Shown here: positions 883 through 30,804 of the stretch, piece after piece
How positions within the stretch are numbered: the stretch's first letter is position 1
How the letters are laid out: the number at the start of each line of letters is the position of its first letter
Assembly (NCBI GenBank): GCA_965645245.1
Contig: OZ287085.1
Coordinates: forward strand, 434,001-498,000
Direction of reading: 5' to 3'
DNA: 64,000 nt
From: Massalongia carnosa
Taxonomy: Eukaryota
Made by a program: the position numbers and the translations under genes
Notes under the pieces: model-generated
What the model was told of the DNA's origin: nothing
Databases searched by the model: none
The model's input: only the letters and a program-made list of their open reading frames with translations

Positions 883-1001
883 TGTTAAATAAACAGTTGA
901 CGGCATAATGTTGAAATTACTATGGAGGTGACTGCTTATAGCAGTCATGGCAGCCTGCAGGGCTGAGCTAGAACTAATGGGGCTAAGCGAGTATTCCAAC
1001 A
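883..1001 (-). mobile_element. Solo LTR (119 bp) of the TRIM family seen at 42038-42928
   Basis: TGTT...AACA ends, 5-bp TSD CACAT at 878-882 and 1002-1006, near-identical to the LTRs at 42038-42156 and 42810-42928. Confidence 0.92.
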
Positions 1002-1022
1002 CACATGACCTACGAACACCTA

Positions 1023-2361
1023 CAGTACTAGGTCAAAAGTTTCCGACAGCCCCACCATCAACTTTTTACCCCCCCACTACTTTGAATTATCAACTATCAA
1101 GTTGTTATTTTGATGTCTTGAAACTTCGTACGATGATTACATACATTATAGCAAGCACATTGGGCTGAGAAATATATTTTTAATATTTCGTATACCCTCC
1201 TTTTGACTGGATGCAAGCTTCAATCCTCCTTTCCATGCTGTCTACTAAACTCTTCAGCATTTCCTCATCTATCAAGGCCCATGCTTCTTCCAATGCTTTC
1301 CAAAGTACCTCGCTGACCCTATCATCACCACCAGTTACCGAGTCGATGTCCGGATTGACCTGGTAGACGAGCTTTTTGAGCACGTACCAAACGTGCTCGA
1401 TGGGATTCAAATCAGGAGAATAAGGGGGCCAATCGATGACTGTTATACCGTTTTCATCGAACCATTTCTTCACCTTTTTGGCAGTGTGAATGGGGGCATT
1501 ATCCTGCATGAAAATGAGACCTTGTTCCCAAATTCCAAGCAGATTATCGTTCAATAATTCCAAATATGAATTCGCGGAGTACCCCATCTTCTTTGCCTCG
1601 AAATCGCGGGCCAATTTGTAAAGATCCGACCTCCCCCCCCCCCCAAAAAGCCCCCCATACCATGACCTTGACCTTTTTTCCTTTGCCGTACGGTTGTATC
1701 ATAGGTTTTTTCCATTTTTCGTCCGGAAACCTGAACACCCATTGACGCTGTTTTCCCGACCCCTTTTCCACCGAGCACTCGTCTGACCATATTATTTTTG
1801 ACCACTGCTCAAAATTCCACTCACGCCGAAGCAAGCACCAGTCCAGTCTCTTCTTTGCCACCTCGGGCGTCAATAAAGGTCGCTTTTTAGCCAGCCAGTT
1901 TGTTAGACCATAGTCTTTGAGCGTCCGATAGAGAGTGGATCGATTACATTGCACCTCAACCTCCGTACGCAGCTGCGCGTAGGTGATGCGTGGATTGATT
2001 CGCGCAAGTTTGATAATACGTCTTCGATCGCGGTTCGAAAATATTCCAGGCCGACCCGATCGCGATTTGGACTTTTCGTTGTTGCGTTCTGGGTGCTTTT
2101 GAAGAGTGTAAATGAATGTGGTTCGAGGCACATTTAATGTCTTTGCAATTTCGGCCGGTGCATGCCTCAATGCCTGGGCTCCAATAATCATACCTCTTTG
2201 ACAATGATTCAGTTCGGTATTACGAGGCTTATTACCAGAAATTGAAGTCAAGGGAGTGCGTGGCATGGTGAAATGATGAGGTCAAAGTTGATGGGTTGGT
2301 AGGTTAAAACGCGAAATCACGAAAATCGCGGGTAGAGTCGGAAACTTTTGACACGGGACTG
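1023..2361 (-). mobile_element. Tc1/mariner (DD34E) DNA transposon, 1339 bp
   Basis: TA on both sides; imperfect 25-bp TIRs CAGTACTAGGTCAAAAGTTTCCGAC and CAGTCCCGTGTCAAAAGTTTCCGAC; contains a transposase. Confidence 0.94.
1180..2266 (-). pseudogene. Tc1-like DD34E transposase, frameshifted at a G homopolymer near 1633-1645
   Basis: ORF 1544-2266 has the HTH, GRP and WSDEC motifs; ORF 1180-1614 has QDNAPIH...SPDLNPIE with 34 residues between D and E. The shift may be a sequencing error. Confidence 0.9.
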
Positions 2362-2459
2362 TATGAGATATCCCTCAGTTAGCTAGCCTAGACCCTCCAT
2401 AGATCAATACACACCACTCCTTTTCACCCATATTCCACATTAGCCCATACAGCTTGATA

Positions 2460-2470
2460 GTTATGAGCCC
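2460..2470 (+). promoter_or_regulatory. Copia-type primer binding site GTTATGAGCCC
   Basis: The same motif abuts the 5' LTRs of the copia (46395-46405, minus) and of the TRIM (about 42797-42809, minus, one extra base). Confidence 0.8.
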
Positions 2471-2555
2471 GGTGAGCATAGAAGCTTCAAATTCCTATTC
2501 ATTGATCTAGTTGAATAAAACCCTCTTCCCAAAACGATCCAACAAAACGATCAAA

Positions 2556-3356
2556 ATGGAGGAGACCAACAAAGCAACGATGATCGCCCTAACTCCCAAG
2601 AATTATCATCTATGGATTAGGGAATTACAAGGAATATCCGAGAAAGCGAAGGTATGGCAATATGTGGACCCCAATTGTTCAAAACCGGAGCCCGAAGAGG
2701 GAGAATATCCGGAAGTTTCACAATATCAAGTCCCTATTCAAGCACAGCCAGCAGGTGGAATTACTTACCCCATTATAGAAGGTGGAGTTGTAATAGCCAC
2801 GAAATCGGCTGAGAAATACGGCGATTTATCGGCTGAGCAAAAGGAGGACTATAAAATGGAGATATCAGCCTATAAGATGAAGGAAAAACAGGTGGAGAAG
2901 GTCGCCCAAGGACTCAGAATAGTGGACAATGCACTTAAGAGCTCCGCACGAGCATACATCCCCCCCAATAAGATGGCTTCATCGGTTAGGGAAATAGTGA
3001 AAATTCTGGCTGCATGATATAAGCGGTCAGATGACCAAGTCATAGAGCAATTGCATGAGCAATTTCTAGCCCTAAAACCCCCGCCCATTAAAGGTAAAAT
3101 AGAGGCATGGGTAGCTGATTGGGAGAATATTAAGGGACAAATTGTTGAGCTCAATGTAACGGGTCTATTTGGCTCCGAGACCATATTCATCAATGAATTT
3201 CTCCAATCAGGGAAGAAATGGGCGCCCAATTTCTGTGAAAATTGGGTAATGCAGCATAGGGCTGCTAAGACGACGGTTGAATTTTACGAGACAACAAGGG
3301 AATATCGTTTAGCCGTGGAATCATTCCTGAATGAGGCAAAATCAACGTCTAGAAAA
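2556..3356 (+). pseudogene. Copia-type gag, in-frame stop at 3015-3017, 3' truncated and joined to gypsy RT
   Basis: N-terminus NYHLWIRELQGISEKAKVWQYVDP parallels the gag of the copia at 46259 (DWRTWFSFIQIKAESLEIWDEVNP); follows the copia PBS. Confidence 0.75.
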
Positions 3357-6300
3357 ATTCAAGGATTAGTTGAAGTGTTGATAGGAGCGCTATTCTTTAC
3401 CAAATTCGACATTCGGGACGCCTTCAACTCTATACGCATTAGAGCCGGCGACGAATGGAAGACCGCGTTCAGATGCAGGTACGGTCACTACGAATATCTA
3501 GTAATGCCTTTTGGGTTAGCGAATGCACCTGCCACGTTTCAGGCGTATATTCACGAAGCTCTAAGGGAATACCTGGACGTATTCGTAGTAGTGTATCTGG
3601 ACGATATTTTGGTGTTTTCTAAAAAAATCGAAGAGCATGCAAATCACGTTCGAATGATACTCGAGAAGCTTCGGAAATATAATCTGCATGCGAAACTCTC
3701 CAAATGCCTTTTCGATAAGTCCGAGATTGAATACTTAGGATTTATTTTGACTCCAACGGGCATAAGAATGGACCCCTCTCGCATAACGACGATAACAAAC
3801 TGGCCAGAACCCAAAAATCATAGAGACGTACAAGTCTTCTTGGGTTTTGCGAACTTCTATAGACGATTTATAGATGGATTTTCGCGGATAGTAACTGCCC
3901 TTACTACCCTTCTCAAAGGAGGAAAAAGGGGTAAATTCGACGGCCAGTTTACGTTCACAACGGAAGCCAAGGAATCCTTTGAAAAATTAAAACTTGTTTT
4001 CACGACTGCTCCCATGCTATTGCACTTCGACCCGAAGAGGAAAATCCAATTAGAAACGGACGCCTCAGGAGTCGCGATTTCTGCAATTATATCACAGTTA
4101 GTCGAAGAAACCGGACGCTGGCATCCTATCGCCTTTTGGTCAAGGAAAATGGCTCCAGCTGAACTCAATTATGGAGTGGGCGAAACTGAGATGTTAGCGA
4201 TCGTCGAAGCATGCAAGCAATGGCGACACTATCTTGAAGGGGCATGCATCCCATTCGTGTGATCACCGATCACTGCAACCTTCGTACGTTTCTCACCACC
4301 AAGAATTTATCGCGAAGAGAAGCGCGATGGTGGGAGAGACTCTCTAGTCTCGACTTGGTAATTGAATACCGACCAGGGCGCTATAATCCTGCGGACGGGC
4401 CTTCAAGGCGTCCAGACTATGCTGGAAATGAACCCAAATTGTCTCATCAAGTTGGTGCAGTAGTTTCCAGTGAAGCAGGGGAGCCTCTGGGTATTCGACA
4501 GGGGACAGAGAAACTCGAAGAAAAGTTCGAGACGAAGAAGTGGGTGGTTGCGTCGATAACCGGCATCCCTGTAACTGCTCCTAGGGGAAATGTTATGGAA
4601 TGGGAGCCCACTGTTGATAGCACAATTGTGCATGGATTCATAGAACCTGAATCTGTTAACGGAACTGATTATGAATCAGGGGACTCTTCCGTTGATGAGA
4701 CCGAAAATGGTCCAAGCGCGCGTTCCTTGCTGGCTACTGAAGGGACTGAGAATGAAACTCTCGAGGTTCTTGGAGCAGTAAGAAGGGTTAAGGAGAAGAG
4801 AAAGTCTTCACCTAAACTGGACGAGGGAAAGGCCGATTCGAAGCCTACAGAGTTCCAACTCATGGAGACATCCGAGAAGGAGTCTCGAATTTCTCTAGAA
4901 CAATCAAAGGAAGTTTCAGAGAAGGACTCAGCCTTTACTGCTCCACCGCTCGAGTTACGCACCGTCCTTCTGGCACTGCAAGAGTCTGATCAACTCGCGC
5001 AGCAGAGACGGCCCCTTGCCGCTTCGTCGGCACAGTGGGAGCAACACAAGAGGGAGAGTTTGTATGGAACGCTGGAAGTCAACAAAGGTGTCCAAAGTCA
5101 CTCGCAGGTAGATACCCTGGCATTGGAAGGGAAACCGCGGGGAGATAATAAAGACAAAGAAAACCTTTGGCATATAGAAGACGGCCTTTTATGCAGAGAC
5201 AATAAATGGTACGTACCTTCAGGCATATTGAGAGAAGCGCTACTGCGACAGAATCATGACGACCCCAATGCGGGCCACTGTGGAGTTAGGCGGACAGTGG
5301 AATTAATTCAAAGAAAATACTACTGGCCTAAAATGCGAAGAGACATCAAAAGTTATGTCGAAACCTGTACTCGTTGTCATCAGGTCAAGGCTCCAAGACA
5401 TAAGCCTTACGGAGAATTGGTGTCGTTGCCAATCCCTCAAGGACCTAGACAAAATTGAACAATGGACTTTATAACCGACCTTCCGCCAAGCATTCGGCGG
5501 GGGCAAGTTTATGACTCCATCCTGGTAACGATAGACAGGTATACGAAATTCTCTCGTTACATACCCGCACGAAAGGACTGGGAAGCTGAGAACATGAGCG
5601 ATGTCCTTGTCGAAGAAATATTTACCAAATTCGGTATGCCAGTGTCGATTGTAACAGATCGGGGAAGTCTTTTCACCTCCAAATTCTGGTTGCACTTCTG
5701 TTATCACCTCCGAGTACGGCTCAATTATAGCACAGCCTTCCATCCTCAAACCGATGGGCAGACGGAGAGACAAAACCAAACCTTAGAACAGTAACTGAGG
5801 TGTTATGTGAACTATCAGCAAGATGACTGGTTATATTGGTTACCAATGGCTGAGTTTGCTTACAACAATAGATTGCACAGCATTATCAACATGACACCGT
5901 TCGAAGCAATGTTCGGGGAAGCCCCAAAGTGGGAAGATAGTATTCTCGAAGCAAGGGAGAGCGAGACCCCAGTGGCTCGCCTTCGAGCGGTGAACATGCT
6001 GAAACAAAGAGAAACGTTGCGGAAACTTCTCAATGAGGCTGTAAACTCTCAAGCTAAGTTCTATAATGAAAACTATATGCCCAAGACATATAAAGTAGGT
6101 GAGAAAGTCCTGCTGAGCGCTAAAAACATCAAGTCTACTAGGCCATCCAAGAAATTGGATTATAAATATTATAGACCATATGAGATAATAGATCTCGTGG
6201 GGAAGAATGCTTACCGCCTGCGACTGCCCAGCTTACTGAAGGGAGTACATAATGTATTTCATGTCTCCTTGTTAGAACCCCACATTATAGATCCAAAAAG

Positions 6301-6559
6301 AGGATCAGAAGAGCCTCCCGCAATAGAGGTCGCGGGGGAAGAGCAGTGGGAAGTACAGAAAATCCTAGACAGTAGGATTCATTATGGTAAACTCCAATAC
6401 TTAGTGAAATGGTTAGGCTACTTGGATACAGATAATCAATGGTTACCAGTCGAAGACATGGAAGGATCTCAGTACCTGATTAGAATATATCATCAGCAAT
6501 ATCCAGCAAATCCTGATGATTCTCACGTCAAGAAAAGACGGAAGAGGAACAAGAAATGA
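3357..6559 (+). pseudogene. Gypsy pol (RT/RH/IN/chromodomain) with one frameshift near 4245 and stops at 5456 and 5792
   Basis: Domain motifs in consecutive ORFs; the protease and RT N-terminus are absent. Confidence 0.92.
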
Positions 6560-7883: not shown

Positions 7884-8036
7884 CACGCCGCGCAACAATG
7901 TTGGGTTCTCGCAAAAAAATTGCTTTTTCGCTACCGGGTTTTTCTTTCAAAACTTGACCCTGACACCAAAAATCGTAGAGTTCGCTACAAACTGGTTTGG
8001 TTTTTAGTAGTGAAACCCGATCCAATGCGCGGCGTA
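7884..8036. mobile_element. About 152-bp MITE with an 8-bp TSD (hAT-like), copy 1
   Basis: Ends (T/C)ACGCCGCGCA...TGCGCGGCGTA; TSD TGCAGTCC at 7876-7883 and 8037-8044. Confidence 0.88.
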
Positions 8037-9109
8037 TGCAGTCCAGAAAAAAACTTTTTCAATAGAGTTTTGATTAAAAAAAACAAGTGTATTTTCTGCA
8101 CTTTTATCAGGGGAGACTCTATCTTCATCGGGAAATCGGGAGATGACTAATAGATCTTGATGATTAAATATTCGACTCTGTGGTTTCTTTAGTCTTTATT
8201 CGTCAACCTTTAGTCAGTTACCTTTATCTGTTGTACGTCTTTTCGTCATATTAGTCAGTGCAACCTGCATCTCAACAAATAATCGTCGCTCTGTCTTTAC
8301 TTCTCGTCTCGATAGGCTTTATTATTCTCTTTACCTCGACCTTTTAATAATTCAGTCGTATATTATCCACTCTATCCTATCTTTACGTCCTCTTTATCCG
8401 TTGCAGAGTAATTTTGCTTGTACAGCTGCTCTCTTTACATGTCGCATCGTCATACATTGAATTCGTTACAGCTTTTGTATCTTGCGTATAAAATATCTTT
8501 ATAATGCGCAACCCACCTTGCATGTCTCATCGAAGATAAAGTTACGCACATTTAGTTCTCGGAGATTAACAGAGTTCTAATTGCTTTCTCTATCTTTGTA
8601 TATTGTATCAGAGTTCAAGTGTTTTGTTAGCTATCGTGAGGTCGTGTTAGACTGACGGGTCGAGGTAACTGTGTGTTAGGAAGCCTGTTAGCTGGCAATC
8701 AGTTTCCTTACTGTAGTGTGATGACGCTCAATTCGAAGCGATTAAGCTTGAGTTATGGTTAGGGATTAAGAACAGCGGTCTTTTGGGGCAAAACTGGCAA
8801 ACGACGGGCTCTCGTACCTCGCTGGACGGGATGTCATGTTGCATTTGTGGTCCGTCACATCCTGTACTACTCTAATTATCGATTCAATGAAATAATTTAA
8901 CCTACTGCATAGATGAAACATTAAGTGAATACCGACGTTCAAAATAACAGTCGCAGCGCTCACGATAACTACTGGAAGACTACGAACTATCTACATATGA
9001 CTCGGGATCACGGGCATTGGAGACTTTATCGTTTGAGACTTTTGAGGTTTGACATACTGAACCTTTTACAGAGATGATCTACGGTAAGCTAACATCAACT
9101 AACCCTAAT

Positions 9110-9185
9110 CTAACAGCTAACAGGATTTTCTTGATCTAACAGGGTTTTCTTGATCTAACAGGGGCTGTTTTAATCTAACAGGAAC
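9110..9185. repeat. About 19-bp tandem repeat (TTTTCTTGATCTAACAGGG) upstream of the element's gene
   Basis: 3-4 imperfect units; the copy at about 21520-21610 has one more unit. Confidence 0.8.
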
Positions 9186-9342
9186 CGTTAGCATATCATA
9201 ACAAAGTCAACGATCCTAACACGCTAGATTTGGTTGCAATGGCAAACTTGTTCATTTTACTTTTCGCGTCGATCTCTTCTACTTTGCTCGTTTCCCAAAC
9301 CCACAGGTATTGCATATTCCTTGTTTCTTCTTTTTTTCAACA

Positions 9343-11780
9343 ATGTCAACATCAACGACAACCACTATCAACAACCCACAAAGAATTACAATGGTACGAA
9401 CCTCCCCAGGATGTATAGAAACCAACGCGTATCGGCTGACTTTGCTTTTCCTTCGAGAACTCTCAGGATTTTGATGATTCGCCTTCCGAGGAAGACTTGC
9501 CTGCATTGGCACAACTAAAACGCTCTCGTGCACAATTTGAGGGAAATAACACTTACGGAGACAACAAACGCTCACATCGCCTGCCTTGTGTGGACGAGTT
9601 GGCTGAATCTAGTACTGGCAACGACTCAAGCGATGCGAGTTTCCAGCCGAGTGTAAGCAGTACAGTCATGAATGCATGTATCGGGTTCTGACCTAGAACA
9701 GAAAACGCCGATAACTAAGTATGTGGCGAGGACATTACCGGCTGGCGCAGGCCGCGGTATTCAATACAGCCCAAGATCTCCATCTCGAATGAGCTCCTTA
9801 CGAAGAGAAACGTTCCCTTCGTCTTGATCGAGAAACCCTTCCCGCGCGCTGGATAATATCTTGTCACCTTCACAAATACGCACTCGTCGGGTTTGCCTGC
9901 GACACTGTCCTCGCAAACTCTCGAGATCTCAAAGGTCCTCCCGATCAAGTCTACTTTCGGCACAAGGGCTGGCATAACGGAGGACGAGACAGTCTCGAAA
10001 TCAAAAAAATATATGCTTATCGTTTACTCTGGGGTGACATATCAAGGCGAACCAAGTTCAACTCTAGCCCTGCTCATCAACCAATACTATGTGCCATGAT
10101 TCCTTTTTTCAACGCTTTGATAACGTCCGGACACGCGGTTGAATTATGTTCGCCTTGGGCGAACACACAGAAGCCTCGATTGAGCAAATTAATGAGTCGT
10201 ACTTGGCGGGACCTTGCGAAGCGTCTCGGTGACCTTCCTGGCAACCGGAACGTCAATGTAGCAGAACTTCCCACCGCCAAAGAGGCTCGCAAGGTAGGAG
10301 AGGTCTTACAACGGATTTGTACATATAAAAACTAATCTGAGACTAGATTTATGATTCGACAACGGATTTTCGCTCTCAAATGTTGAGCAAAGTGAGCTTG
10401 CTTGTGGCTAACGAATACAGTTCTCAGTTCAGAGCGACTGTCGAATATTCGTGTCCACTTTGCTAGACGATCTTAATTTTCTGTGCGAAGATTTATCAAC
10501 GGTTAGTATGTCCTAGTTATCTTGATATAGAGTTTAACTAACTCGCGAGTAGGCTCCGAAAAAGCAGTTTATCGCGCCTATCTTGATAAAGGCAATTACT
10601 CTGATATTCTTCAATAACGACAATGACTGCAGTTATGGACGCAATACCGACACTGCGTATTTGTTCAATCCACTTCGAGGAGAAGTGATCGTATTGATAG
10701 CAACTCTAACTCAACATGCTATTGGAGAGTATGAGTACCGGCAAAAAAAGGTACAGGCTTTTGATGGGTCACAGCGAGAGAGTAAGTTTGTATCAATATA
10801 ATCTTTGCTGAGTTGAGGCATTAATACTGAAAACAATCCATACTCGAATGACGAACACCTGGAATCAACAGTCCTCGGAGAGATAGATGTTGTTACAATG
10901 AATCATTCATCGGCGGGTTATGCGTCAGACTGGACAAAGAGATGGGGACTTTTCGGCGGTCACAAAAGCTGTCCACAATCCATTTGCCACTTCTATTGAC
11001 GATCTTGTAGATCTTGATGCAGGAGATAAAATGACCAAGTCGGTCAGGTCGACAGCGCGGCTTTCTTCCTTGACATCTTCGTGTAGAACTTCGATCGTTC
11101 GTTGCGAGGAGGTGGATTCGGGTTTTTCGGTATGTCTTGATTGATATTATGCTTTGGAATTATCAGTAACAACAATAGAAGGAAACCTCTTCACCTAAGA
11201 CCGCCGCAGTTGACGAGCCACGAGGTATGCAATCTTATTAACCGCGTTCTAACGTGCTATTAACATCTCTACTAGAATTCTTCGCAACGTGGGCCCTCAC
11301 AATTAAAGCACAGCGCATCAAGTTCATCATTCGTAAGAATTCGCTTTTTTTGTAGAATATCTGTCAGTCTAACAGTTGCGTTGGAAACAGATTAACGACA
11401 AGATATCGTCAACTCCAACTCCACTCGTGCAAGACGCAATCGTGACGACAGATTCGGGTCAAGAATTTGCGGTAGATTACGATTTACGCATGGGGAAAGA
11501 CTGGCGGATTCGGATGAGGTATGATGCAACGTGGAAGGAGTGGCAGACTGCTGTGGGAATGAAAGATGGGGAGTCGTTCTGGTATACTGTACCAATATTT
11601 CCCGAGGCCGTATTGAGCTTTGAGGAGGAATATAGTTCGTTTTTGGATCGGGTGGAACAGGTGCATAGAGTAATGATACACACTGGGCGCAATCTCAAGC
11701 AGATGAAGACTCTGCGAGGGAGGACGACAATATGGGAGAACTCACATAACATTTATTTTACCCAAATCTTGATAATATAA
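9343..11780 (+). pseudogene. Multi-exon gene of unknown function inside the CATCGGG element (central exon resembles fungal DUF6532-type proteins)
   Basis: ATG 9343 MSTSTTTTINNPQRITM, then GTACGA..GCTGAC..AG and GTAAGC..CTGAC..AG introns join to acidic and Ser/Arg-rich exons; later exon FIAPILIKAITLIFFNND..SYG..YLFNPLRGEVIVLIATLTQHAIGEY. Some stops/frameshifts. The 3' end is approximate and the domain call is by resemblance only. Confidence 0.6.
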
Positions 11781-12148
11781 TTGACTGGTGTGTCTTTATT
11801 GTCGTATCTTGCAGCATCAAGCGCTCGAAAAGGAAACAGAAGCAGTGTATTTTGAAGATTTGTTACAATCGTTACTAAAACAACAAGTTAATGAAATTAT
11901 TGGATTCAAATGCTTATAATGACACAAAAGAGTCCATATAACAATTATCATCATTGGACAAAGGAAGGTAAAGGTAATCAATAGTCAAAGAGTAACTGTT
12001 TACACGTCAAATGTTCGACTATTCGTCAAGCGCCCATGTCAAACATGGGCGCAATCGGAATTACCTAGAACATTTCGGCTAATTGACTAATGTAGCCTAT
12101 TAGTCGACCATTTGACCAATTCGCGAGTCCTCCTGATTTCCCGATGTT

Positions 12149-14415: not shown

Positions 14416-14566
14416 TACGCCGCGCAACGGGTTGGGTTTTCGCTATAAAATTGCTTTCTCGCCACCGGGTTTTTCTTTAAAACTCAACCCGGACATCAAC
14501 AATAATAGCGTTCTCTACAAACGGGTTGGGGTTTCAATAGAGAATCCCGACCCGTTGCGTGGCGTA
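14416..14566. mobile_element. hAT-like MITE copy 2
   Basis: TACGCCGCGCAACGGG...CCCGTTGCGTGGCGTA; 8-bp TSD ACAATATA on both sides. Confidence 0.92.
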
Positions 14567-17048: not shown

Positions 17049-17520
17049 ATGTCGAGATCTAAACAACCTCGGCGTGTTGTTCCGGTTTCTGCCCGTTCAT
17101 CGCGGGCCAAGCGGTCCCACCCGGCCGTTTTACCCCCTCCTCGCCCCCGCCACCCTACCACTCCTGGTCCGCAGGACCATGTTTTCCTGGGTGTCGTGGT
17201 TTCCCCCGCCGCGCCACCCGTTTCCGCCCCGGATCGTGGCGGTTCCCTCTGCCTCCCCCTTTTCCGCTCCTCCACCCGCCCAATTGGGTGGGGCCTACCC
17301 TGGAGGTAAGCGTTTGCCTCCGGTGTGCCAAGCAGACCCTTGGGGGCGACCCTATTGCATGTGAGTGCTCCAAAGAGTCGGGGAAGTGTGGGGAGTGTCG
17401 CCGGAAGAAGGATAAATGTTTTCCGGTAGGTGGAGTTCTGTTATGGAAAATTTGATCTAATTTGGGTAGGTTCCAGTCAATTTCCGCTGCTCGGTGGCTT
17501 ATCTCTTGGTGGAGATCTAG
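17049..17520 (+). pseudogene. Antisense accessory gene in gypsy A copy 2: Arg/Pro-rich N-terminus, Cys-rich motif, putative 44-nt intron
   Basis: After one frameshift near 17255 it reads VCLRCAKQTLGGDPIACECSKESGKCGECRRKKDKCFP (Cys 17315-17419), GTAGGT donor 17426, CTAAT branch, TAG acceptor 17469, then VPVNFRCSVAYLLVEI*. Confidence 0.55.
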
Positions 17521-17689
17521 TGTCGAATTAATTTAATCATTTTTTGACACTTTTAGGCCGGATTAGAGGTTGGACCCCCTCCAGGGGAGGATATTTTGGT
17601 GGATTGAAAAGGGGGTGAAGGGGTGAGAGAAGGTGGTTGTGGTGTGGTAGATAGCAGTCTGATCCTGGATCATTCGACTCCAATGGAAA

Positions 17690-18359
17690 TGGTTCATGCC
17701 TTCGATTTTCTTTTCTTCCTCGTAGGAGTTCTGGAAGGTTTTTCCGGATATTGATTATGATAGGAAATAATTAATTCCTGTGATCCTTCCACGTCTTCTA
17801 TGGATAACCATTGATTATCCGTATCGGATAATCCTATCCATTTCACTAGATATTGGTTGTTCTTCCCCTTCTACTTCTATGGGTAGAGGCGGTTCAGATA
17901 TTTTGTTCGGGTCATATCTATAAGGTTCCAATAGGGAAACACGGAACACATTATGAATACCCTTCCATAACGGAGAAAGTTGGAGTTTGTAGGCCTGTTT
18001 TCCTATAGGAGAGACAATTTCGTATGGCCCGTAATATTTGTAGTCCAGTTTTTTGGACGGACGAGTGGATTTAATATTTTTTGCGTTCAGGAGGACTTTA
18101 TCACCCATATTATACGTCTTGGGAATATGTTTCTGATCATAATATTTAGCCTGGGTACTTGAACCTGTTTGTAATAATTTCTCCAGGTGTTTTCTTTTGT
18201 CCATTATGTCAGTAGCCAGGACGCGTGCAGCAGGAACCTCGGACCCCTTTTCAGTCAGAATTTCATCTTCCCATTTGGGCGCTTCTCCAAATATAGCTTC
18301 GAAGGGGGTCATTTTTTTGACACTAAGTAAGCTATTATTATAAGCGAATTCTGCCAAGG
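17690..18359 (-). pseudogene. Integrase C-terminus and partly deleted chromodomain of gypsy A copy 2
   Basis: AEFAYNN..TPFEA..KKLDYKYYGPY..HNVFRVSLLEPY; continues from 25705 once the insert is removed. Confidence 0.9.
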
Positions 18360-18849
18360 CACGCGGGGGACAAAAAAAAAACTACACCAAAATTTAACCG
18401 GGTTCAAGCCCCCACCAAAACACAAGCAATTTCCATACAATTTTGATAGGATAATCACCATTTCAACAACCAGTCATCCAATTCATTCAATCTATTCAAT
18501 AACAAGTCATTTTACCCTCACCATCCAAAACAGCTCTCAATCTACATCGGGAAATCGGGAGGACCCGCGAATTGGTCAAATGGACGACTAATAGGCTACA
18601 TTAGTCAATTAGCCGAAATGTTCTAGGTACTGCCGATTGCGCCCACGTTTGACATGGGCGCTTGACTAATAGTCGAACATTTGACCTGTAAACAGCTGCT
18701 CTTTGACTATTGATTACTTTTACGTTTCTTTGTCTAATGATGATAATTGCTTTATTGACTCTTTTGTGTCATTGTAAGCATTTGAATCCAATAATTTCAT
18801 TAATTAACTTGTTGTTTTAGTAACGATTGTAACAAATCTTGCGTTGGTC

Positions 18850-21374
18850 AAAATGCACTGCTTTTGTTTCCTTTTCGAGCGCTTGATACTGCAAGATACG
18901 ACGATAAAGACACACCAGTCGAGTATATTATCAAGATTTGGTTTAAATAATGTAATGTGAGTTCTCCCATATTGTCGTCCTCCCTCGCAGAGTTTTCATC
19001 TGCTTGAGATTGCGCCCAGTTTCCTCTTCGTATCATTATTCTATGCACCTGTTCCACCCGATCCAAAAACGAACTATATTCCTCCTCAAAGCTCAATACG
19101 GCCTCGGGAAATGTTGGTACAGTATACCAGAGCGACTCTCCATCTTTCATTCCCACAGCAATCTACCACTCCTTCCACGTTGCATCATACCTCATCCGAA
19201 TCCGCCAGTCTTTCCCCATGCGTAAATCGTAATCTACCGCAACTTCTTGACCCGAATATGTCGTCACGATTGCGTCTTGCGCGAGTGGAGTTGGAGTTGA
19301 CAATATCTTGTCGTTAATCTGTTTCCAACGCAATTGTTAGACTAACAGATATTCTACAAACAAAGCGAATACTTACGAAGGATAAACTTGATGCGCTGTG
19401 CTTTAATTGTGAGGGTCCACGTTGCGAAGAATTCTAGGAGAGATGTTAATACCATGTAGAACGCGGTTAATAAGATTGCATACCTCGTGGCTCGTTAACT
19501 GCGGCGGTCTAGGTGAAGAGGTTTCCTTTCTATTGTTGTTACTGATAATTCCAAAGCATAATACCAATCAAGACATACCGAAAAACCCGAATGCACCTCC
19601 TCGCAACGAACGATCGAAGCTCTACACGAAGATGTCAAGGAAGAAAGCCGCGCTGTCGACCTGACCGACTTTGTCATTTCATCTCCCGCATCAAGATCTA
19701 CAAGATCGTCAATAGAAGTGGCAAATGGATTGTGGACAGCTTTTGTGACCGCCGAAAAGTCCCCATCTCTTTGTCCAGTCTGACGCATAACCCGCCGATG
19801 AATGATTCTTTGTAACAATATCTTTCTCTCCGAGGACTGTTGATTCCAGGTGTTCGTCATTCGAGTATGGATTGCTTTTCAGTATTAATGCCTCAACTCA
19901 GCAAAGATTATATTGATACAAACTTACTCTCTCGCTGTGACCCATCAAAAGCCTGTACCTTTTTTTGCCCGTATTCGTACTCTCCAATAGCATGTTGAAT
20001 CAGGGTTGCTATCAATATCATCACTTCTCCTCGAAGTGGATTGAACAAATGCGCAGTATCGGTATTGCGTCCATAACTGCAGTCATTGTCGTTATTGAAG
20101 AATATCAGAGTAACTGCCTTTATCAAGATAGGCGCGAGAAACTGCTTTTTCGGAGCTTACTCGCGAGTTAGTTAAACTTTATATCAAGCTAACTAGGATA
20201 TATTAACCGTTGATAAATCTTCGCACAGAAAATGAAGATCGTCTAGCAAAGTGGACACGAATATTCGACAGTCGCTCTGAACTGAGAACGGGTATTCGTT
20301 AGCCACAAGCAATCTCACATTGCTCAACATTTGAGAGCGAAAATCCGTTGTCGAATCATAAATCTAGTCTCAGATTAGTTTTTATATGTACAAATCCGTT
20401 GTAAGCAAGACCTCACCTACCCTGCGAGCCTCTTTGGAGGTGGGAAGCTCTGCTACGTCGACGTTCCGGTTGCCAGGAAGGTCACCGAGACGCTTCGCAA
20501 GGTCCTGCCAAGTACGACTCATTAATTTGCTCAATCGAGGCTTCTGTGTGTTCGCCCAAGGCGAACATAATTCAACCGCGTGTCCGGACGTTATCAGAGC
20601 GTTGAAAAAAGGAATCATGGCACGTATTATTAGTTGATGAGCAGGGCTAGAGTTGAACTTGGTTCGCCTTGATATGTCACCCCAGAGTAAACGATAAACA
20701 TCTATTTTTTTTTATTTCGGAGACTGTCTCGTCCTCCGTTATGCCAGCCCTTGTGCCGGAAGTAGACTTGATCAGGAGGACCTTTGAGATCTCGAGAGTT
20801 TGCGAGGAGAGTGTCGCAGGCAAACCCCGACGAGTGCGTATTTGTGAAAGCGACAAGATATTATCCAGCGCGCGGGAAGGGTTTCTCGGTGGAGACGAGG
20901 GGAACGTTTCCCTTCGTAAGGAGCTCCTTCGAGATGGAGAACTTGAGCTGTATAGAATACCGCGGCCTACGCCGGCCCGTGATATCCTCGCCACATACTT
21001 AGTTATCGGCGTTTTCTGTTCTAAGTCAGAACCCGATACATGCATTCATGACTGTAATATTTACACTCGGCTGGAAACTCGCATCGCTTGAGTCGTTGCC
21101 AGTACTAGATTAAGCCAACTCGTCCACACAAGACAGGCGATGTGAGCGTTTGTTGTCTCCGTAAGTGTTATTTCCATCAAATTGTGCACGAGAGCGTTTT
21201 AGTTGTGTCAATGTAGGCAAGTCTTCCTCGGAAGGCGAATCATCAAAATCCTGAGAGTTCTCGAAGGAAAAGCAAAGTCAGCCGATACGCGTTGGTTTCT
21301 ATACATCCTGGGGAGGTTCGTACCATTGTGATTCTTTGTGGGTTGTTGATAGTGGTTGCCTTTGATGTTGACAT
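18850..21374 (-). pseudogene. Second copy of the multi-exon gene of the CATCGGG element
   Basis: ORF fragments 19908-20126, 20382-20618 and 18848-19156 match 10583-10801, 10096-10335 and 11376-11780; ATG at 21374 (MSTSKATTI). Confidence 0.6.
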
Positions 21375-21685
21375 AGTGAAATAAAAGAAGCAACACTGAA
21401 TATGCAATACCTGTGGATTTGGGAAACGAGCAAAGTAGAAGAGATCGACGCGAAAAGTAAAATGTTCCCAAATCTAGCGTGTTAGGATCGTTGACTTTGT
21501 TATGATATGCTAACGGATCCTGTTAGATTAAAACAGCCCCTGTTAGATCAAGAAAACCCTGTTAGATCAAGAAAACCCTGTTAGATCAAGAAAATCCTGT
21601 TAGCTGTTAGATTAGGGTTAGTTGATGTTAGCTTACCGTAGATCATCTCTGTAAAAGGTTCAGTATGTCAAACCTCACATACTTA

Positions 21686-21984
21686 CTATACCCCCCCTGA
21701 ACAATCTTGAAAACATGGGTTTTTTGCAAGGGGAGGACGGGAGTAATGACTTGACAGCACATGGGTGGAAAACCAGGGCTTCGAGCCAATCAGGACATGT
21801 AAATATTTTTTACTGTACAGCCCTACAGGGAATCCCTTAGTGATTTTACCTCCGTCCCCAAATATCCAGAAGATTCGACTGTCTGATTGGCGACAAGCCT
21901 GTATCCACGCCCGTTTTCACCCTAGCACACACCCCCGTACTGTCCTTGCAAAATCCCATGTTTTCAAGATTGTTCAGGGGATAG
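21686..21984. mobile_element. About 300-bp Tc1/mariner-type MITE
   Basis: TIR core CCCCTGAACAATCTTGAAAACATGGG at both ends, TA on each side, no coding capacity. Confidence 0.85.
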
Positions 21985-23818
21985 TATAATGATATCCGTT
22001 CACCTGTAACAATAGTTACCAGGTATCATGGAAGCGGCAACGAGTCCGTGGCACTTCAGACCTGAAGCGTTGAAAACGGCGGACATAGCAGAGGACAACA
22101 GTGTTCTTTGCGGAGACGATAGTACTGAATATAGTAAGCACCCCCGAAAAGCCTAATTCCTGCCCCAGACCTGCTCATCGACGCTCCGCAACGGCCCTTC
22201 GCCACATTCTTCGTGAACTGAATGTTCACCTTTTATACCACCTCATGGAAATCATCTAGACCATCTTTCGTCAACCATTTATCTACCATCCAGATCACAA
22301 CCCAGATTACCTTTGACCACCATCCAGACCACCATCCAGATCACCGTCCATACCACCTTTTGACTATCATCCCAACCACCTCTTGTCCACTATCGATACG
22401 ATCATCCATATTATCTTTGACCTCCGTCCATACGAAGGAAGCTGTGGCATGTGTAATCTATATTCCGATGAACAAATCAAGTAGTGGACTCCATTTGTCA
22501 GGTTAATATAACCAACCGAGTCCATTTTTATTGCGACCGAGAGCGCCCCCCTATCGCACATCCCATATATCTAGACCTTCATGTGCTCTTGAATCCTTTA
22601 GACTTGATGGATTGGGTGTTTAGTTTATGTTTGGGATTATAACTTAACGTTTGGGATTATAACGTAATGTAACGGTTCGACCATGCGTGGTCTCGACAGC
22701 AGGACCTACAGCGAACATGGCAGGAGTCCCAGTTATAGTAGAATAGAGCTTGGTCTGCGGACTAAGTATTGTGCCTTTTAGTCGGGAGGACAGGTGGCGC
22801 AATGGTAGAAATATATTCACTATCTCGCTTCGTCACACGTAACCTGTTGTGTTATATTAGGATTAACGAGAATTGGTTTCTTAAACGCATGCGCTTTTTG
22901 GTAGGATAAGGAAGGGCTTCCGTCTAAGAGGGACTGTTGTTCCAGAACAGATGAGCTTAGTATGTCGTCGCGGTAGTAGTTGGTCTTCTAAGATTTGGGC
23001 TCTGTAGGCATTAAGCAGGCTTTCTCGTCATCAAGTAACAGATAATCATCAATTCAAAGAATAATGAGAATCACAACCACGTAATGATGTAGAATACTGT
23101 TGATCTTCGAGAACTGAATGTGCGTAACATTATCTTCGATAAGAAATGTAAGGTGGGTTGACAGAGTACGCAAGGTACAAAAGCTGCAACGAAGTCAATA
23201 TATGACGATGCGACATGTAAAGAGAGCAGCTGAACAACCAAAATTACTCTGCGACGGATAAAGAGGACGTAAAGATAGGATAGAGTGGATAATATAGGAC
23301 TGAATTGTTAAAAGGTCAAGGTAAAGAGAATAATAAAGCTTATCGAGACGAGAAGTAAAGACAGAGCGACTATTATTTGTTGAGATGCAGGTTGCACTGA
23401 CTAATATGACGACAAGACGTACAATAGACAAAGGCAACTGACTAAAGGTTGACGAATAAAGACTAAAGAACCCAAAAAGTCGAATATTTAATCATCAAGA
23501 TCTATTAGTCATCTCCCGATTTCCCGATGTATCTGGCATAGTAGACACCCGTTCATTGATAAATGCCTGGGAAACGTTCGCCCACCCCTCATAAATTAGC
23601 CCCTTGGTCGTATCATCATCCCAATGAGGATATTTTTTTTAATATTGCTTCGGGGCCTGCCAGCAATTTTCTATGGGGGCCAAATCAGGTGAACATGGAC
23701 AGTTGAAATAGTGCTTCAGATCATTGTTCTGCTTCCAAGTGCGTACAATGTTTGATTTGCCTGGTCCATGTCCAGAATCACCGTCTTCATCTAAGACGAA
23801 ATCGTGTTTTGCTTCAAT

Positions 23819-24845
23819 TGTAATGGGCTACGAGACCAGTAAGCTTATCACGAGCGACACTGATCTCGAAAGGGGAAATGCTCAGCGTGAGAGGTGGAAG
23901 ATAGCTACTACGTGCTGGTCTCCGAGAGTATACGTGATCCAAAGAACTAATCGATGTGGAAGTGCTCAGACCAAGAGATCTCGTCCGAGACCCAAACGTA
24001 GGTTGTTCATAGAATAAAGACTAATTGCTAACGAATACTACAAGATTCGTTCTGGTATTTATCCTACTCACCCCAAGCCTATAGCCTTGGGAGCCTTGGA
24101 ACCTTAGGAGCCTTGCAACCCACTTCTGACCTTATCGTCTTACATCTAACCATCCCTCAGGATCCATCTACGAACTCGGCGTTCGCTGGATCATCTAGTC
24201 AGCCTCGAGCAGCCTTCTAGACCTTCCCTTGCAAGGTAGAACACTTCTACCTCCGGCTAGATCCCTCACTACATTGCTAGCCTGCCTCTAAACATAAAGT
24301 CTAGACGCCGAGGCTATGTAGCTTCATTTCGCCGTCACCACTACCAACGTAGCGATGGAAGGTTACCTCCGACTGAATCTCTATCTACACTGCGGACCTG
24401 CCTCTAGACACAAGGTCTAGACCACAAGGTCATGTAGGTTCATTCAGCCGACATCACTACCAACGTAGCAATAAAGGTTGAAGCTGAAGTTTACACCGGG
24501 GAGGCCGAGCTCAAGCTGCGTCCAGCTAGCCGTGCCTCCTGCTACAACTCTTGATCCATCAAGAGATCGAGTAGCTCCGGGTAGGCCAGTAGATTCCATA
24601 TAGAGTTCACGGCTTCTCCACAGGAGTTCGCCTTACTCCATGGCAATCTACCACCACGGCCTCGACAGGTGTTTGATCTGTAAGCAGTCTAGAACGTAGT
24701 AACAACTAATTCGGAGTTGTGTGGCAAGGTGGCGTCGTGTCAACCTCGACGGCTGTGCGACTAAGTACTACGGCCTGGCTCATGCTAGTTAATCCCGCAA
24801 CCGCCGTAGGCGATCACGTATCCTTCTAGCGCCATCCGTATTACA
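23819..24845. mobile_element. 1027-bp insertion with TGTAAT...ATTACA ends; probable long solo LTR
   Basis: 5-bp TSD TCAAT at 23814-23818 and 24846-24850; interrupts the DD37E transposase at PW|IEAKH; internal direct repeat of about 80 bp at 24281 and 24398. Confidence 0.85.
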
Positions 24846-25704
24846 TCAATCCAGGCTTCACAATAGGCTCCAATATAGAGTCGATATAGACTCGTTGACT
24901 CATCTTTCCATTGAAGTTTCCAGGAACTTTGTAAAAGTAGATATCTGACTTGAAGTCATGACCTGCAGCAGCCCAACAATGATGTCTCTTCTTGACGGCC
25001 TCGTCTGGTTTATCTGCTTCTTGAATACAATCATGACAATAACGTTCACCTAATCTTCGTATGATGCGTAATTTGCCCTGAGGTCCCCATCCAAAGTGCA
25101 CTTCGTCGCTAAATCGAACTTGTTTCCAGTCTTCTGCATTTGGATATCTAGAAGCATAGCATCTGACCACTTCGAAGCTTTCTTGTCTTCTCGTTCACCC
25201 ATCCCTTTCTGCACGCAATACATTTGTGATAATCCATGGTGCCCATGATTCGTTGAATGGTTTTGCCACTGCAGTCTAGGCTACTTCGAAGCCCAATTGC
25301 TCCCATGTAAGAGCGCGCGCCTCCATACCTTCTTCTTCCAATAGCCGTTCCATTTCTCTAATCAATTTAGGCGTAACAATTTTGTGACGCCCACGAGCTT
25401 CAGAAACATCGGAATTATTATGATGACGGCGTGATGGGGCTCCTTCACGCAGGTATGCATAGCCCCTCGTACGTTCCACATCAAATGTGCGAAAAACATC
25501 CTCTTTGTGATAAGAAATGCCTTGCTTTTCGCAAAATTCAACGGCTCCCTGAATTTTAGCTTTGGTAGGAGTCTCGATATGTTTAGAATTCATAATAATG
25601 ATAATTATCCCATCAAAATCGTATGTAAATTGCTTGTGTTTTGGTGGGGAGTTGAGCCCGGTTAAATTTTGGTGTAGTTTTTTTTTTGTCCCCCGCGTGC
25701 AAGG

Positions 25705-28700
25705 GTAACCAGTAAGTCCAGTCATCCTGTTGATAATTGACGTAGCATCGTAGATATTGTTCCAGTGTCTGATTTTGTCTCTCGGTTTGACCATCCGTTT
25801 GTGGATGAAAGGCTGTACTGTAACTGAGTCGAAGTCTCAAATGATAACAGAAATGAGACCAGTACTTTGAGGTGAATAAACTACCCCTATCCGAGACAAT
25901 AGACACTGGCATACCGAATTTGGTAAATATTTCTTCCACTAGGACGTCAGCCATGATTTCAGCATTCCAGTCCTTTCGTGCGGGAATATATCGAGAATAT
26001 TTGGTATACCGATCCACAATGACAAGAATCGCATCATATGCCACGGTTCGGCGGAGACTCGGGGGCAGATCCGTTATGAAGTCCATCGTCCAATTTTGTC
26101 TAGGCCCTTTTGGTACGGGTAGGGATTCTAATAATCTGAAGGGCTTATGTCTGGACGATTTGACTTGATGAAAACGAGTACACGTTTCCACATAATGCCT
26201 GATGTCCTTTACCATTTCGGGCCAATAATATTTCCTCTGGATCAATTCCAACGTTCTGGAATAACTAAAGTGGCCCGCATTAGGATCATCATGATTCTAC
26301 CGCAAAAGTTCAGCACGTAATAGACCAGGGGGAATATATCACCTATTGTCCCTGCATAGGATATTATCCTTCATGTGCCATCGGGTTTTTTCTAGGTCTC
26401 CTTCGACTTCGCCCTCCGACTCCCGCTCGTCTCGGAGCTGAGAGCCTGACGAGTCTTCGTTACCCCCCAATTTATCCCTCGACGTGTCATGTAGTCGTCC
26501 TATAGAATTCCGCCCCTCATCTATCGACGATGCGATGGATGGCCGTTTCTTCTGCACTAGTGGATCAGGCTCTTGTAGAGTTTGTAAAACGGTGCGTAGT
26601 TCTATTGGGGCGGCCCCAAACGCCGAGTCTTTCTCAGAGACATTTTTTATCTCTTTCCGAGAAATTTCAAACTTCTAATCCGAAGTTTCCACGAGTTTGA
26701 GTCCAACTGATTTTAATTAATCAATTTCTCGTGTAACTGAGAGGTATCGGAACTACTTCCTGATTTTTTCCCCTTAGTTCTTCCAACAACCGCAAGAATT
26801 TCAGGAATTTCGACAATTTCAGCCGAATCAATTCCAATTCCTTCAGTAGTTTGTTGGGCCTGCGCAGTACTCCGACAATTTTTGTCGACAACGGGTGGAC
26901 TCATCAAATTGCGATTTGCCCCGTCTGATAATTCAATTATAGTAGATTCTCAATCCATAGCATCGTCAGCTACTTGAGATTCATCATTCACAAGGGCCAT
27001 TGTCCAATTTGACGTAATGAGCTCCTCTATCCCACCCTCGATTCCTCTCCGAGACCCCCCCGAATCTTCCAGGAATTATAGCTCCGGCTTGATGAGATAA
27101 GTCGTGCCTTTCTTCCATATAATCCGGGCGTCTAGAGGGTCCATCGGCTGGATTATGACGACCTGGACGATATTCAATGACGAGATCAAGACTAGAAAGT
27201 CTTTCCCACCATCTCCCCTCTCGTCTAGATAAATTTTTGGTAGTAAGAAAGATACGAAGATTACAATCATCGGTTATTACCCGAATCGAATGTATCGCCC
27301 CCTCAAAATAATGTCTCCACTCCTTACATGCTTCAACAATGGCCAACATTTCTGTTTCGCCAACACCGTAGTTTAATTCGACTGCATGCATTTTTCTTGA
27401 CCAAAAAGCAATAGGATGCCACTGTCCCGTCGATTCAACCAATTGTGATAAAATAGCTGAAATCGCGACTCCGGACGCGTCCGTCTCTAATTGTATTTTC
27501 CGCTTAGGGTCAAAATGCAATAACATAGGAGCGGTGGTAAAAGCATGCTTGAGACGACGAAATGATTCTCTTGCTTCTTCGGTGAATGAGAATTTAATAT
27601 CGAACTTTCCTTTCTTTCCCCCTTTTAGTAGCGTCGTTAAGGCGGCCACAATGCGCGAGAATTCGTTGATAAATCGCCTATAGAAATTTGCAAAACCGAG
27701 AAATACTTGAATATCTCGATGATTTTTGGGTTCAGGCCAATCTATAATCGTCGCCACCCGAGACGAGTCCATAGATATACCATTCCGATTTACAATAAAT
27801 CCCAGAAATTCAATTTCAGTCTGGTCAAAGAGGCACTTGGATAATTTCACCTGTAGACTGAATTTCCGTAATTTCTCCAGGACTAGTCGGACATGAAATG
27901 TATGATCTTTTATCGATTTGGAGAATATCAAAATATCGTCCAAGTACACCACTACGAAGTCATCTAAACATTCCCGTTGGGCTTCGTTTATGTAGGCCTG
28001 GAATGACGCAGGAGCGTTGAATAGTCCGAAAGGCATAACCCGGTATTCAAATTGACCGTGCCTGCATCGAAAAGCCGTTTTCCATTCGTCACCGGCCCGT
28101 ACCCGGATTTTATGATATGCATCCCGGATATCGAGTTTAGTGAAGTAGACGGCGCCAACAAGAACATTTAATAGGTTCATGATCAAGGGTAAAGGATATC
28201 GATTTTTTATGGTAATAGCGTTCAGTCCCCGATAATCAACACATAGTCTCAGACCACCATTCTTTTTCTTGACGAATAAAATAGGAGCACCGGCCGATGA
28301 AGTGCTAGGAACTATGAATCCTTTGGCCAAATATTTGTCGAGGTACTCCCGTAATATTTGTAACTCGGTCAAGGATAAATTGTATATTGGGCCGAATGGA
28401 GGCTGTTTTCCTTCCGTATCGATAGCATGATCCTGAGGTCCATGTTCAGGCAACTTCTGTGCATTATCTTTCGAAAAGACGTCATGGAAATCCGAATATT
28501 TGGATGGAATTTCATTTGTAACCTCCGTCACCGAACCGACTACGGTTCCTGCCCGATCGAGCTTCTCGATATCTAAAAGGAATGCCTGAACTCCATCTTT
28601 TTCACAAATGTCCCAAATTTCGTCCCTGCTCACCATCGCTACGTCCGCTTGACTACTGGTATTTTTACTTCGGGGGGGGTAACCCCCTCGTCTACAGGCC

Positions 28701-30475: not shown

Positions 30476-30804
30476 AGTATCGTCGGGCTGTTACTAGGAT
30501 ATAAGACTGAACAAAATGTAAGGGGTCAAGTCTAATAGCGTGACTACTATATGGATTCGTGATGAATGTACGAATAGAGAGTGGTAAATCAATAAATTGA
30601 TCAGTAACCCCTCGAAAGAAGTGGGCGATCAGGTCCTTATCCTATAGCCCCACTTCTTCGGGTCGCGAGTCCGTTGATTTAATTATAGTGATTATGATTG
30701 GTACAATGAAAAGAAGAATACGAACACGAGCCGTGTCCTAGTCGGAGATCGGAGATCGGTTATAACTACCGATTCGCTTATGTCAGGACGTGCGTGACCT
30801 GACA

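Follow-up and report, generated by a model that had tools for sequence, protein, structure and literature searches.

What kind of mobile element lies at positions 8126-12146 of this stretch of Massalongia carnosa DNA, and what is the spliced gene that it carries between its ends? We analyzed the whole stretch of 64,000 nucleotides (contig OZ287085.1, positions 434,001 to 498,000), referred to below as the window, for which an original prediction made from the letters alone had proposed two insertions of a mobile element with CATCGGG ends. The two insertions are probably two copies of the same PlavakaB-type element, a non-autonomous DNA transposon of the cut-and-paste class. This assignment was made on the inverted ends and the target-site duplications (TSDs), and each copy holds one multi-exon gene with the Pfam domain DUF6532. 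On what could be seen, the novelty lies in a gene-carrying, non-autonomous variant of a PlavakaB-type transposon. The element has been mobile, as is evident from its exact borders, a variable 2-bp duplication, at least three insertion sites and its nesting in other transposons. Both copies of the gene in the window are pseudogenes that have diverged by about 5% at a neutral rate.

Copy 1, the short form of the element, occupies 8126-12146 on the plus strand (4021 bp), and copy 2, the long form, occupies 18545-23529 on the minus strand (4985 bp), where it is inserted in a Tc1/mariner element. The copies are in inverted orientation to each other and were joined in a repeat search by 14 inverted-repeat pairs (I1-I14) with 92-100% complementarity. 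In blastn, positions 918-4021 of copy 1 matched positions 1853-4985 of copy 2 with 93.7% identity over 3153 columns, and the first 454 and 440 nt of copies 1 and 2, respectively, were 90.3% identical. In a global alignment of 3086 nt, the copies were 95.1% identical and differed by 89 transitions, 61 transversions, and 12 gap events. The likeness ends exactly at the inverted ends, and the flanks of the copies are unrelated. Elsewhere in the 64-kb window there were no other copies, fragments, or DUF6532-like coding stretches.

The left terminal inverted repeat (TIR) of copy 1 is CATCGGGAAATCGGGAG (8126-8142, plus strand), a tandem of ATCGGGA(A), and its right counterpart (12130-12146, minus strand) carries one mismatch. 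The two ends of copy 2, at 18545-18561 (plus strand; the element's right end) and 23513-23529 (minus strand; the element's left end), are perfect over the 17 bp. When the window was searched for this 17-mer with up to three mismatches, four sites were obtained, exactly the four element ends, against a mean of 0.19 in shuffled sequence; four or more sites were reached in 0/100 shuffles. The degenerate form CATCNGGAAAT likewise occurred in the window at these same four ends only. The TSDs were read directly: TT at 8124-8125 on the left of copy 1 equals TT at 12147-12148 on its right, and copy 2 has TA on its low-coordinate side (18543-18544) and TA on its high-coordinate side (23530-23531), both of the latter also being covered by an empty-site joint with two shared letters that is described below. 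The two insertions thus agree with the prediction in coordinates, ends, and duplications, as do the 17-bp TIRs containing ATCGGGA twice. The 9 bases that precede the two plus-strand ends, CTCTATCTT at 8117-8125 and CTCAATCTA at 18536-18544, are alike at 7/9 positions, which at two sites only could reflect either a target-site preference or chance.

The dense subterminal TTAGTC-type motifs that had been predicted were also borne out by counting. Eight of the 10 TAGTC in copy 1 and 10 of the 15 in copy 2 fall within the terminal 2 × 300 bp, and the TTAGTC of copy 1 are all terminal (6/6). Shuffles of the terminal regions contained a mean of 1.2 TAGTC, and the observed count was reached in 0/2000 of them. 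In copy 1, TAGTC or TTAGTC is found in the left subterminal region (8143-8260) at 8145, 8190, 8211, and 8252, and TAGTC is found in the right subterminal region (11980-12129) at 11982, 12017, 12085, and 12101, together with a GC-rich palindrome, GCGCCCATG-TCAAA-CATGGGCGC, at 12030-12052. The palindrome is situated about 95 bp inward from the right end of the element and 250 bp past the stop codon of the gene, and its counterpart in copy 2 is at 18639-18661. Folding of the palindrome gives a hairpin with a 10-bp stem (-13.1 kcal/mol and z -6.0 in copy 1), which is retained in copy 2 with one G-T change (z -4.1). It may serve as a binding site for a protein or as a hairpin of the terminator kind. 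Additionally, copy 1 has a tandem array of a 19-bp repeat, CTAACAGGGTTTTCTTGAT, at 9110-9182 (plus strand; 3.4 units with CTAACAG five times), 160-230 bp upstream of the ATG, and the counterpart array of copy 2 at 21519-21610 has 4.4 units with six CTAACAG. The window contains 19 CTAACAG against 5.6 expected, and 11 of the 19 are inside the two arrays. The CTAACAG core of the repeat bears what we take to be a resemblance to the Myb-type site CNGTTR.

Movement of the element could be followed in Logan contigs of four coded public runs (X1, X2, X3, and X6), which were aligned on positions 17345-24729 and accepted at 90% likeness. Five contigs (three from X1 and one each from X3 and X6) contain a joint from 18542 to 23530 that skips 4987 nt, that is, the element and one TA, with two letters that fit either side. 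These contigs fix the borders of copy 2 to the base and support the 2-bp duplication. Copy 2 cuts a Tc1/mariner transposase gene at its 3' end, and removal of the element with one TA restores the frame, in which ...STMPD is followed by RLRAVLDGEGKMTCY and a stop. Furthermore, an X2 contig of 6738 nt contains the short form, as in copy 1, followed by a different flank and thus represents a third insertion site. With TT, TA, and the empty-site joint in five contigs of three runs, the predicted mobility and variable TSD both held, and the two duplications that could be read completely are of 2 bp. Other runs contain both kinds of middle segment, the short one and the long one. Up to 20-24 distinct X1 contigs span the element at variant positions (their summed depth does not equal copy number), which indicates that the element exists in many sequence variants. 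In total, eight public runs of six studies contain part of copy 1, with word shares from 0.54 to 0.09, and one of these runs is labeled as a lichen metagenome. A metagenome search with the 17-mer returned 120 loci, which were rejected as chance matches, having nothing else in common with the element by blastn or tblastn.

Plavaka transposons were reportedly first described by Iyer et al. (PNAS, 2014). Statements about the published families are drawn from the accessible part of Kojima 2025 (PMC12730594), in which Plavaka is placed in the CMCT clade (EnSpm/CACTA, Mirage, Chapaev, Transib, and Plavaka), with mostly CA..TG ends and TSDs of 2-5 bp, and from which it appears that complete Plavaka elements were reconstructed only in late 2025. 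PlavakaA has TGT..ACA ends and 2-bp TSDs, and PlavakaB has CATCA..TGATG ends and TSDs of 2 or 3 bp. All 26 PlavakaB entries listed in the accessible part of Data S1 (26/26, out of 55 occurrences of the name) begin with CATC; in 24 of them the fifth base is A, and one entry each has T or G there. The single listed entry with G at base 5, PlavakaB-1_AuCo, begins with CATCGGGG, while PlavakaB-1_SLL begins with CATCAGGAAATTGG and PlavakaB-1_GyCo with CATCTGGAAATGGG. Several PlavakaB families have variable 2-bp TSDs in Figure S2 (AT, AA, GG, and TG), and the consensus lengths of those listed are 6.2-24.4 kb.

The element in the window starts with CATCGGGAAATCGG; it has CATCNGGAAAT in common with two of the published PlavakaB families and CATCGGG in common with a third. 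Its ends, CATCG...CGATG, match the PlavakaB consensus at 4/5 bases, and the duplications TT and TA fit a TSD of 2-3 bp. The Plavaka DDE transposase (PF18759, with C(2)C and H(3-4)H motifs) was absent from both copies when the exons and 13 open reading frames (ORFs) of the copy-specific segments were scanned with Pfam, and at 4.0 and 5.0 kb the copies are shorter than every PlavakaB family listed. Since no transposase is encoded and the copies are this short, both are non-autonomous. Canonical EnSpm/CACTA was ruled out by the CATCG ends and the 2-bp TSD, fungal EnSpm having CAC..GTG ends and 3-bp TSDs (PMC12730594), so the prediction that these are not ends of the usual CACTA type stands. Lineages that duplicate TA only, namely ESTA and PHISTA (PMC12730594) and Tc1/mariner, were ruled out by the TT/TT at copy 1. 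The further proposal of a non-autonomous member of a poorly described fungal CMC-like family can be kept as well, and the family can now be given a name, probably PlavakaB.

The gene of copy 1 lies at 9343-11780 on the plus strand and was delimited by tblastn with two homologous proteins (P0012 and P0026, described below), by exon translations, and by GT..AG introns. Guided by the homology with P0012, the model has about eight exons, at approximately 9343-9393, 9467-9652, 9702-10293, 10347-10501, 10553-10781, 10834-11129, 11276-11332, and 11391-11780, separated by GT..AG introns of 49-73 nt. A further small exon at 11179-11224 is doubtful. An alternative model with a 29-nt intron at 10392-10420 was discarded, as the frame of copy 2 stays open across this position and copy 1 carries a 1-nt deletion there. 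The gene of copy 2 was located by Pfam and exon translations at 18848-21374 on the minus strand. The exon at 10553-10781 (plus strand) encodes the C-terminal half of the DUF6532 domain (PF20149), and the last exon, at 11391-11780 (plus strand), shows homology to the PB1-like domain at the C terminus of P0012 (tblastn, residues 518-564; E = 0.013). Both copies exceeded the Pfam gathering threshold of 24 bits for DUF6532, with 31.7 bits in copy 1 (exon 10553-10801; E = 1.8e-7; profile positions 113-185 of 194) and 39.2 bits in copy 2 (exon 19908-20156; E = 9.1e-10), so the resemblance of the central exon to DUF6532 that had been noticed from the letters is real. No other Pfam family was found in the exons of the element.

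Both genes have decayed. Copy 1 is interrupted by in-frame stop codons at 9825, 10884, and 10899 and by two 1-nt deletions, and its intron 5 has lost the acceptor site. Copy 2 carries an in-frame TAA in exon 2 and an in-frame TAG in its last exon, and the acceptor site of its intron 4 is gone. A frameshift in an A-run near 10000 is present in both copies. Shifts in such homopolymers, a G-run near 9893 included, could be assembly errors, but the substitutions are not. The original prediction of a single spliced non-transposase gene was right about the multiple introns and about the coding content, which is DUF6532 only; the breaks in both copies had gone unremarked. At least the TAG of copy 2 is private: at 19161, all counted contigs of X1, X2, X3, and X6 show the state of copy 1. 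Thus, less damaged copies may exist elsewhere. Between the copies, the ratio of non-synonymous to synonymous substitution rates (dN/dS), which the prediction had left to be calculated, was 0.79 over 568 codons (48 non-synonymous and 18 synonymous changes; binomial P = 0.38 against neutrality), and divergence outside the exons was 5.7%. Repeat-induced point mutation was rejected as the cause of decay, the transitions and transversions being 89:61 and showing no CpA bias. The whole multi-exon gene and the upstream repeat array were kept in copy 1, in copy 2, and in the X2 contig, with even cover in X1, X3, and X6.

An exhaustive phmmer search with the DUF6532 exon of copy 2 against 1.84 billion representative proteins gave 40 hits at E ≤ 0.001, one of them with 91% identity and the rest mostly short gene-call fragments. 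Of 12 hits scanned with Pfam, 10 were DUF6532 proteins, and the other two (P0030 and P0037) were unrelated repeat proteins. Full-length homologues were P0012 (572 amino acids; PF20149, 79.9 bits) and P0026 (566 amino acids; 73.4 bits), which NCBI labels as hypothetical proteins of metagenome-assembled genomes of lichen fungi. By tblastn, residues 123-365 and 518-564 of P0012 align to the element; thus, the homology takes in the conserved LLWG..RRxKFxSSxAH motif and all of DUF6532 as well as the C-terminal domain.

The encoded protein is predicted to have about 600 amino acids, with a disordered acidic N terminus followed by the helical DUF6532 domain and, at the C terminus, a beta-grasp domain of PB1-like type. 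A structural model of P0012 built on 22 aligned sequences had a pLDDT of 71-93 over most of residues 220-395, which are all helical, and of 77-91 over residues 510-560, the remainder being disordered. It replaced an earlier model made without an alignment, which had a mean pLDDT of 35.7 and gave helical matches at chance level and one PB1 match. The best VIA match of the final model joined residues 490-566 to the PB1 domain of NBR1 (Z 7.2; root mean square deviation, 2.6 Å; 70/86 residues), and PB1 domains made up 12 of the top 25 VIA matches (Par6/PKC iota, MKK5, MEKK3, Cdc24p, p40/p67phox, p62, and plant NBR1). The Foldseek matches to PB1 were weak (probability 0.33-0.69, E > 0.1), nothing in the PDB was matched by Foldseek at E ≤ 0.001, and a sequence-profile search of the PDB gave nothing at E ≤ 1. 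Atlas look-alikes of the C-terminal part were ubiquitin-like and PB1 clusters, with scores of 0.80-0.83. On these models, a PB1-like fold of the C-terminal domain is a lead, and it would suggest an oligomerizing DNA or chromatin factor.

In the mechanism that we propose, another locus of the genome encodes a Plavaka DDE transposase, as would follow from family membership, and this enzyme recognizes the 17-bp CATCGGGAAAT... ends, a recognition probably assisted by the subterminal TTAGTC repeats. The transposase would then excise the element and reinsert it at a 2-bp staggered cut, and the unit that multiplied would always have carried one spliced gene, a cargo distinct from the transposase. The DUF6532 protein may be an accessory borne by the element, which, much like TnpA in En/Spm, would bind element DNA or chromatin (at the CTAACAG array or at the subterminal TTAGTC repeats) and form oligomers by way of its PB1-like domain. 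We tentatively favor such a native accessory gene, which seems more likely to us than a captured host gene, the functional step being drawn by analogy. That DUF6532 proteins in general are the second, TnpA-like protein of Plavaka-type transposons, which would bind the TTAGTC repeats or the CTAACAG array and pair the ends, is a bolder extension of the same analogy and an unlikely one. If it were true, the large fungal DUF6532 family would be transposon-borne and would not consist of host genes.

Comparison with known systems shows where the element is ordinary and where it differs. In En/Spm (CACTA) of maize, a multi-intron second gene encodes TnpA, a protein other than the transposase. The element resembles En/Spm in its CA..TG ends, its short subterminal repeats, and its multi-intron non-transposase gene but differs in having CATCG instead of CACTA termini and a TSD of 2 bp instead of 3 bp. 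The role suggested for the DUF6532 protein, binding of subterminal repeats and pairing of ends, is modeled on TnpA by analogy. Pack-MULE and Pack-CACTA are non-autonomous TIR elements that usually carry gene fragments. The present element is likewise non-autonomous and encloses a non-transposase gene within its TIRs, but it has a whole gene of about eight exons with its upstream region in every form seen. With PlavakaB it shares the CATC... termini, the variable 2-bp (or 3-bp) TSD, the short inverted ends, the fungal host, and the capacity for an extra gene besides the transposase. Unlike PlavakaB, it has no PF18759 transposase, is 4.0-5.0 kb long instead of 6.2-24.4 kb, has G instead of A at the fifth base, and carries a DUF6532/PB1-like gene as cargo in place of a TET/JBP dioxygenase gene. 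Its host also seems to be a fungus associated with lichens, judging from the lichen-metagenome run and from the origin of the closest full-length homologues. The autonomous Plavaka elements of red algae, which are 17-19 kb long, have accessory genes PAG1-3 (bioRxiv 10.1101/2025.02.11.637652). Non-transposase accessory genes and tandem repeat arrays adjoining one of them are common to those elements and ours, but the PAG products are of methylase/SET and ParB-like/2OG-oxygenase types, and none is reported as DUF6532 in the accessible part of that study. A full-text literature search for DUF6532 or PF20149 found one paper, in which the family is a list entry: a comparison of Ganoderma species whose accessible part lists KDZ, Plavaka, CxC2, and DUF6532 together, as domains found in the same subset of species (PMC8955403).

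Several points weigh against a PlavakaB-type transposon with a native DUF6532 accessory gene. The fifth terminal base is G and not the A of the PlavakaB consensus, and the terminal motif in common with PlavakaB is short (10/11 bases). Of the three TSDs, just TT and TA were read completely, and the third site gave one letter. The empty-site contigs, for which a likeness of 90% was accepted and whose shorter side has 29-44 letters, are most likely uninterrupted paralogous mariner copies and not an empty allele. A Plavaka partner acting in trans is assumed, and Pfam gave no Plavaka or KDZ match among the 52 ORFs of the window that were scanned. With regard to the gene, the dN/dS value between the copies reveals no selection. 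The NBR1 PB1 match is below the guide value of Z 8, Pfam found no PB1 domain (PF00564) in P0012 or P0026 at E ≤ 5, and the helical DUF6532 domain has no informative structural match, its best VIA match (a Homeo-prospero domain, Z 5.7) being too weak for a helical fold. Finally, TET/JBP is the one accessory gene found in basidiomycete Plavaka in the accessible part of the survey (10.1101/2025.02.11.637652), and no report of a DUF6532 gene inside an autonomous Plavaka was found in the literature searched, in which the published PlavakaB consensus sequences were covered in part.

These points give some room to a different history, in which a PlavakaB-like non-autonomous element captured the DUF6532 gene from its host, by transduplication as in Pack-MULEs and Pack-CACTA, and the gene has no role in transposition. 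We consider this rather doubtful. It agrees with the annotation of the full-length relatives (566-572 amino acids) as ordinary hypothetical proteins in fungal assemblies and with a dN/dS that cannot be distinguished from neutral, as well as with TET/JBP being the sole accessory gene reported for fungal Plavaka in the accessible part of the survey just cited. It also agrees with the Atlas clusters nearest to the whole protein, which are large Basidiomycota DUF6532 families of 124, 53, and 52 members (scores of 0.85-0.86, to be taken as leads only). However, large families rich in fragments would also be expected of a transposon-borne gene, and short DUF6532 relatives are in part multi-contig, as is one 134-amino-acid protein found on 27 contigs. 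Captured gene fragments, moreover, are usually partial, whereas here a complete multi-exon gene and its upstream array were kept in every form seen. The claim in the original prediction that the element had kept its own accessory gene is thus not established, a captured host gene being also possible, and a native accessory gene is the reading that we tentatively retain.

The assignment to PlavakaB could itself be mistaken if the element belonged to another CMCT lineage, Mirage-like, ESTA-like, or undescribed, and its ends resembled those of PlavakaB by convergence. CA..TG ends and TSDs of 2-5 bp are found clade-wide (PMC12730594), no transposase was seen here, and the fifth base departs from the PlavakaB consensus. 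Against this, copy 1 has TT where ESTA and PHISTA duplicate TA only, fungal EnSpm differs in its CAC..GTG ends and its TSDs of 3 bp, and the accessible entries include two PlavakaB families with CATCNGGAAAT and a third with CATCGGG, so that we regard another lineage as improbable. It is far less probable still that the DUF6532 protein is a new kind of transposase and the element autonomous. Its gene stands alone between the ends and occurs in every form seen, but Pfam gives DUF6532 alone, the ends and the TSD are typical of a DDE family, and the model is a helical bundle with a PB1-like beta-grasp, without an RNase H-like/DDE, recombinase, HUH, or reverse transcriptase likeness among 500 Foldseek and 50 VIA matches. 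The prediction that the protein is not a known transposase accordingly withstood both the Pfam and the structure searches. As for a segmental duplication or an assembly error in place of transposition, copies 1 and 2 do lie within 15 kb of each other in a repeat-rich region, but their likeness stops at the inverted ends, their flanks are unrelated, each has its own 2-bp duplication, and the empty-site contigs in three runs and the third site in a fourth contradict it; we give this explanation next to no credence. The two copies are thus best described as insertions of a transposon that is probably of the PlavakaB type.

As such, the element is a PlavakaB-type vehicle that multiplied with a whole gene other than TET/JBP, and it provides a first concrete genomic context for DUF6532, a fungal Pfam family to which no role has been assigned. 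If the link between DUF6532 and transposons were general, many fungal "hypothetical proteins" would be transposon genes. In itself the element is unremarkable, being one decayed non-autonomous family in a region made up almost entirely of transposons.

The short and long forms differ in their middle segments. The segment specific to copy 1 (8580-9042; 463 nt) has no similarity to copy 2, and that specific to copy 2 (21677-23089; 1413 nt) has none to copy 1. Pfam gave no match at E ≤ 1 for the three ORFs tested in the former and none above threshold for the 10 ORFs tested in the latter, and no transposase remnants were found in either segment (Pfam, E ≤ 1). Within the segment of copy 2, the summed contig depth in X1, X3, and X6 was greater over positions 22532-23025 than over the remainder of the element by a factor of 5-60. 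Joints connect 22787-22837 with about 23818, and the piece 22532-23025 is shared with a separate high-copy repeat. The same segment contains a 31-bp inverted repeat (97%) at 21694-21724 and 21950-21980, the arms of which are 225 bp apart, and this might be a small nested insertion resembling a miniature inverted-repeat transposable element.

Around copy 2, three levels of nesting were observed at 17815-26296, where a Ty3/Gypsy integrase gene is split by a Tc1/mariner element and the mariner element is split by copy 2. The parts of the integrase gene are SH3_Tf2-1 at 17815-18381 and H2C2 and rve at 25613-26296, and the inverted ends of the Tc1/mariner element lie at 18359-18462 and 25597-25700 (92%). 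The left flank of copy 1 is part of another dispersed repeat of about 150 bp, found at 7885-8036, 14417-14566, 48164-48284, and 54730-54880 with 78-82% identity. The 64-kb window as a whole is almost all transposons and has an even GC content of 41-49%. Pieces of Ty3/Gypsy pol occur at 3018-6559, 26984-30490, 32254-35450, and 48540-52113, together with a Copia element at 40755-45582, a Tc1 helix-turn-helix domain at 1544-2281, and a pogo/Tc5 DNA-binding domain at 63081-63686. Among these transposons, an open frame of 555 amino acids on the minus strand (56313-57980) encodes an HNH_2 endonuclease domain (E = 1.3e-12).

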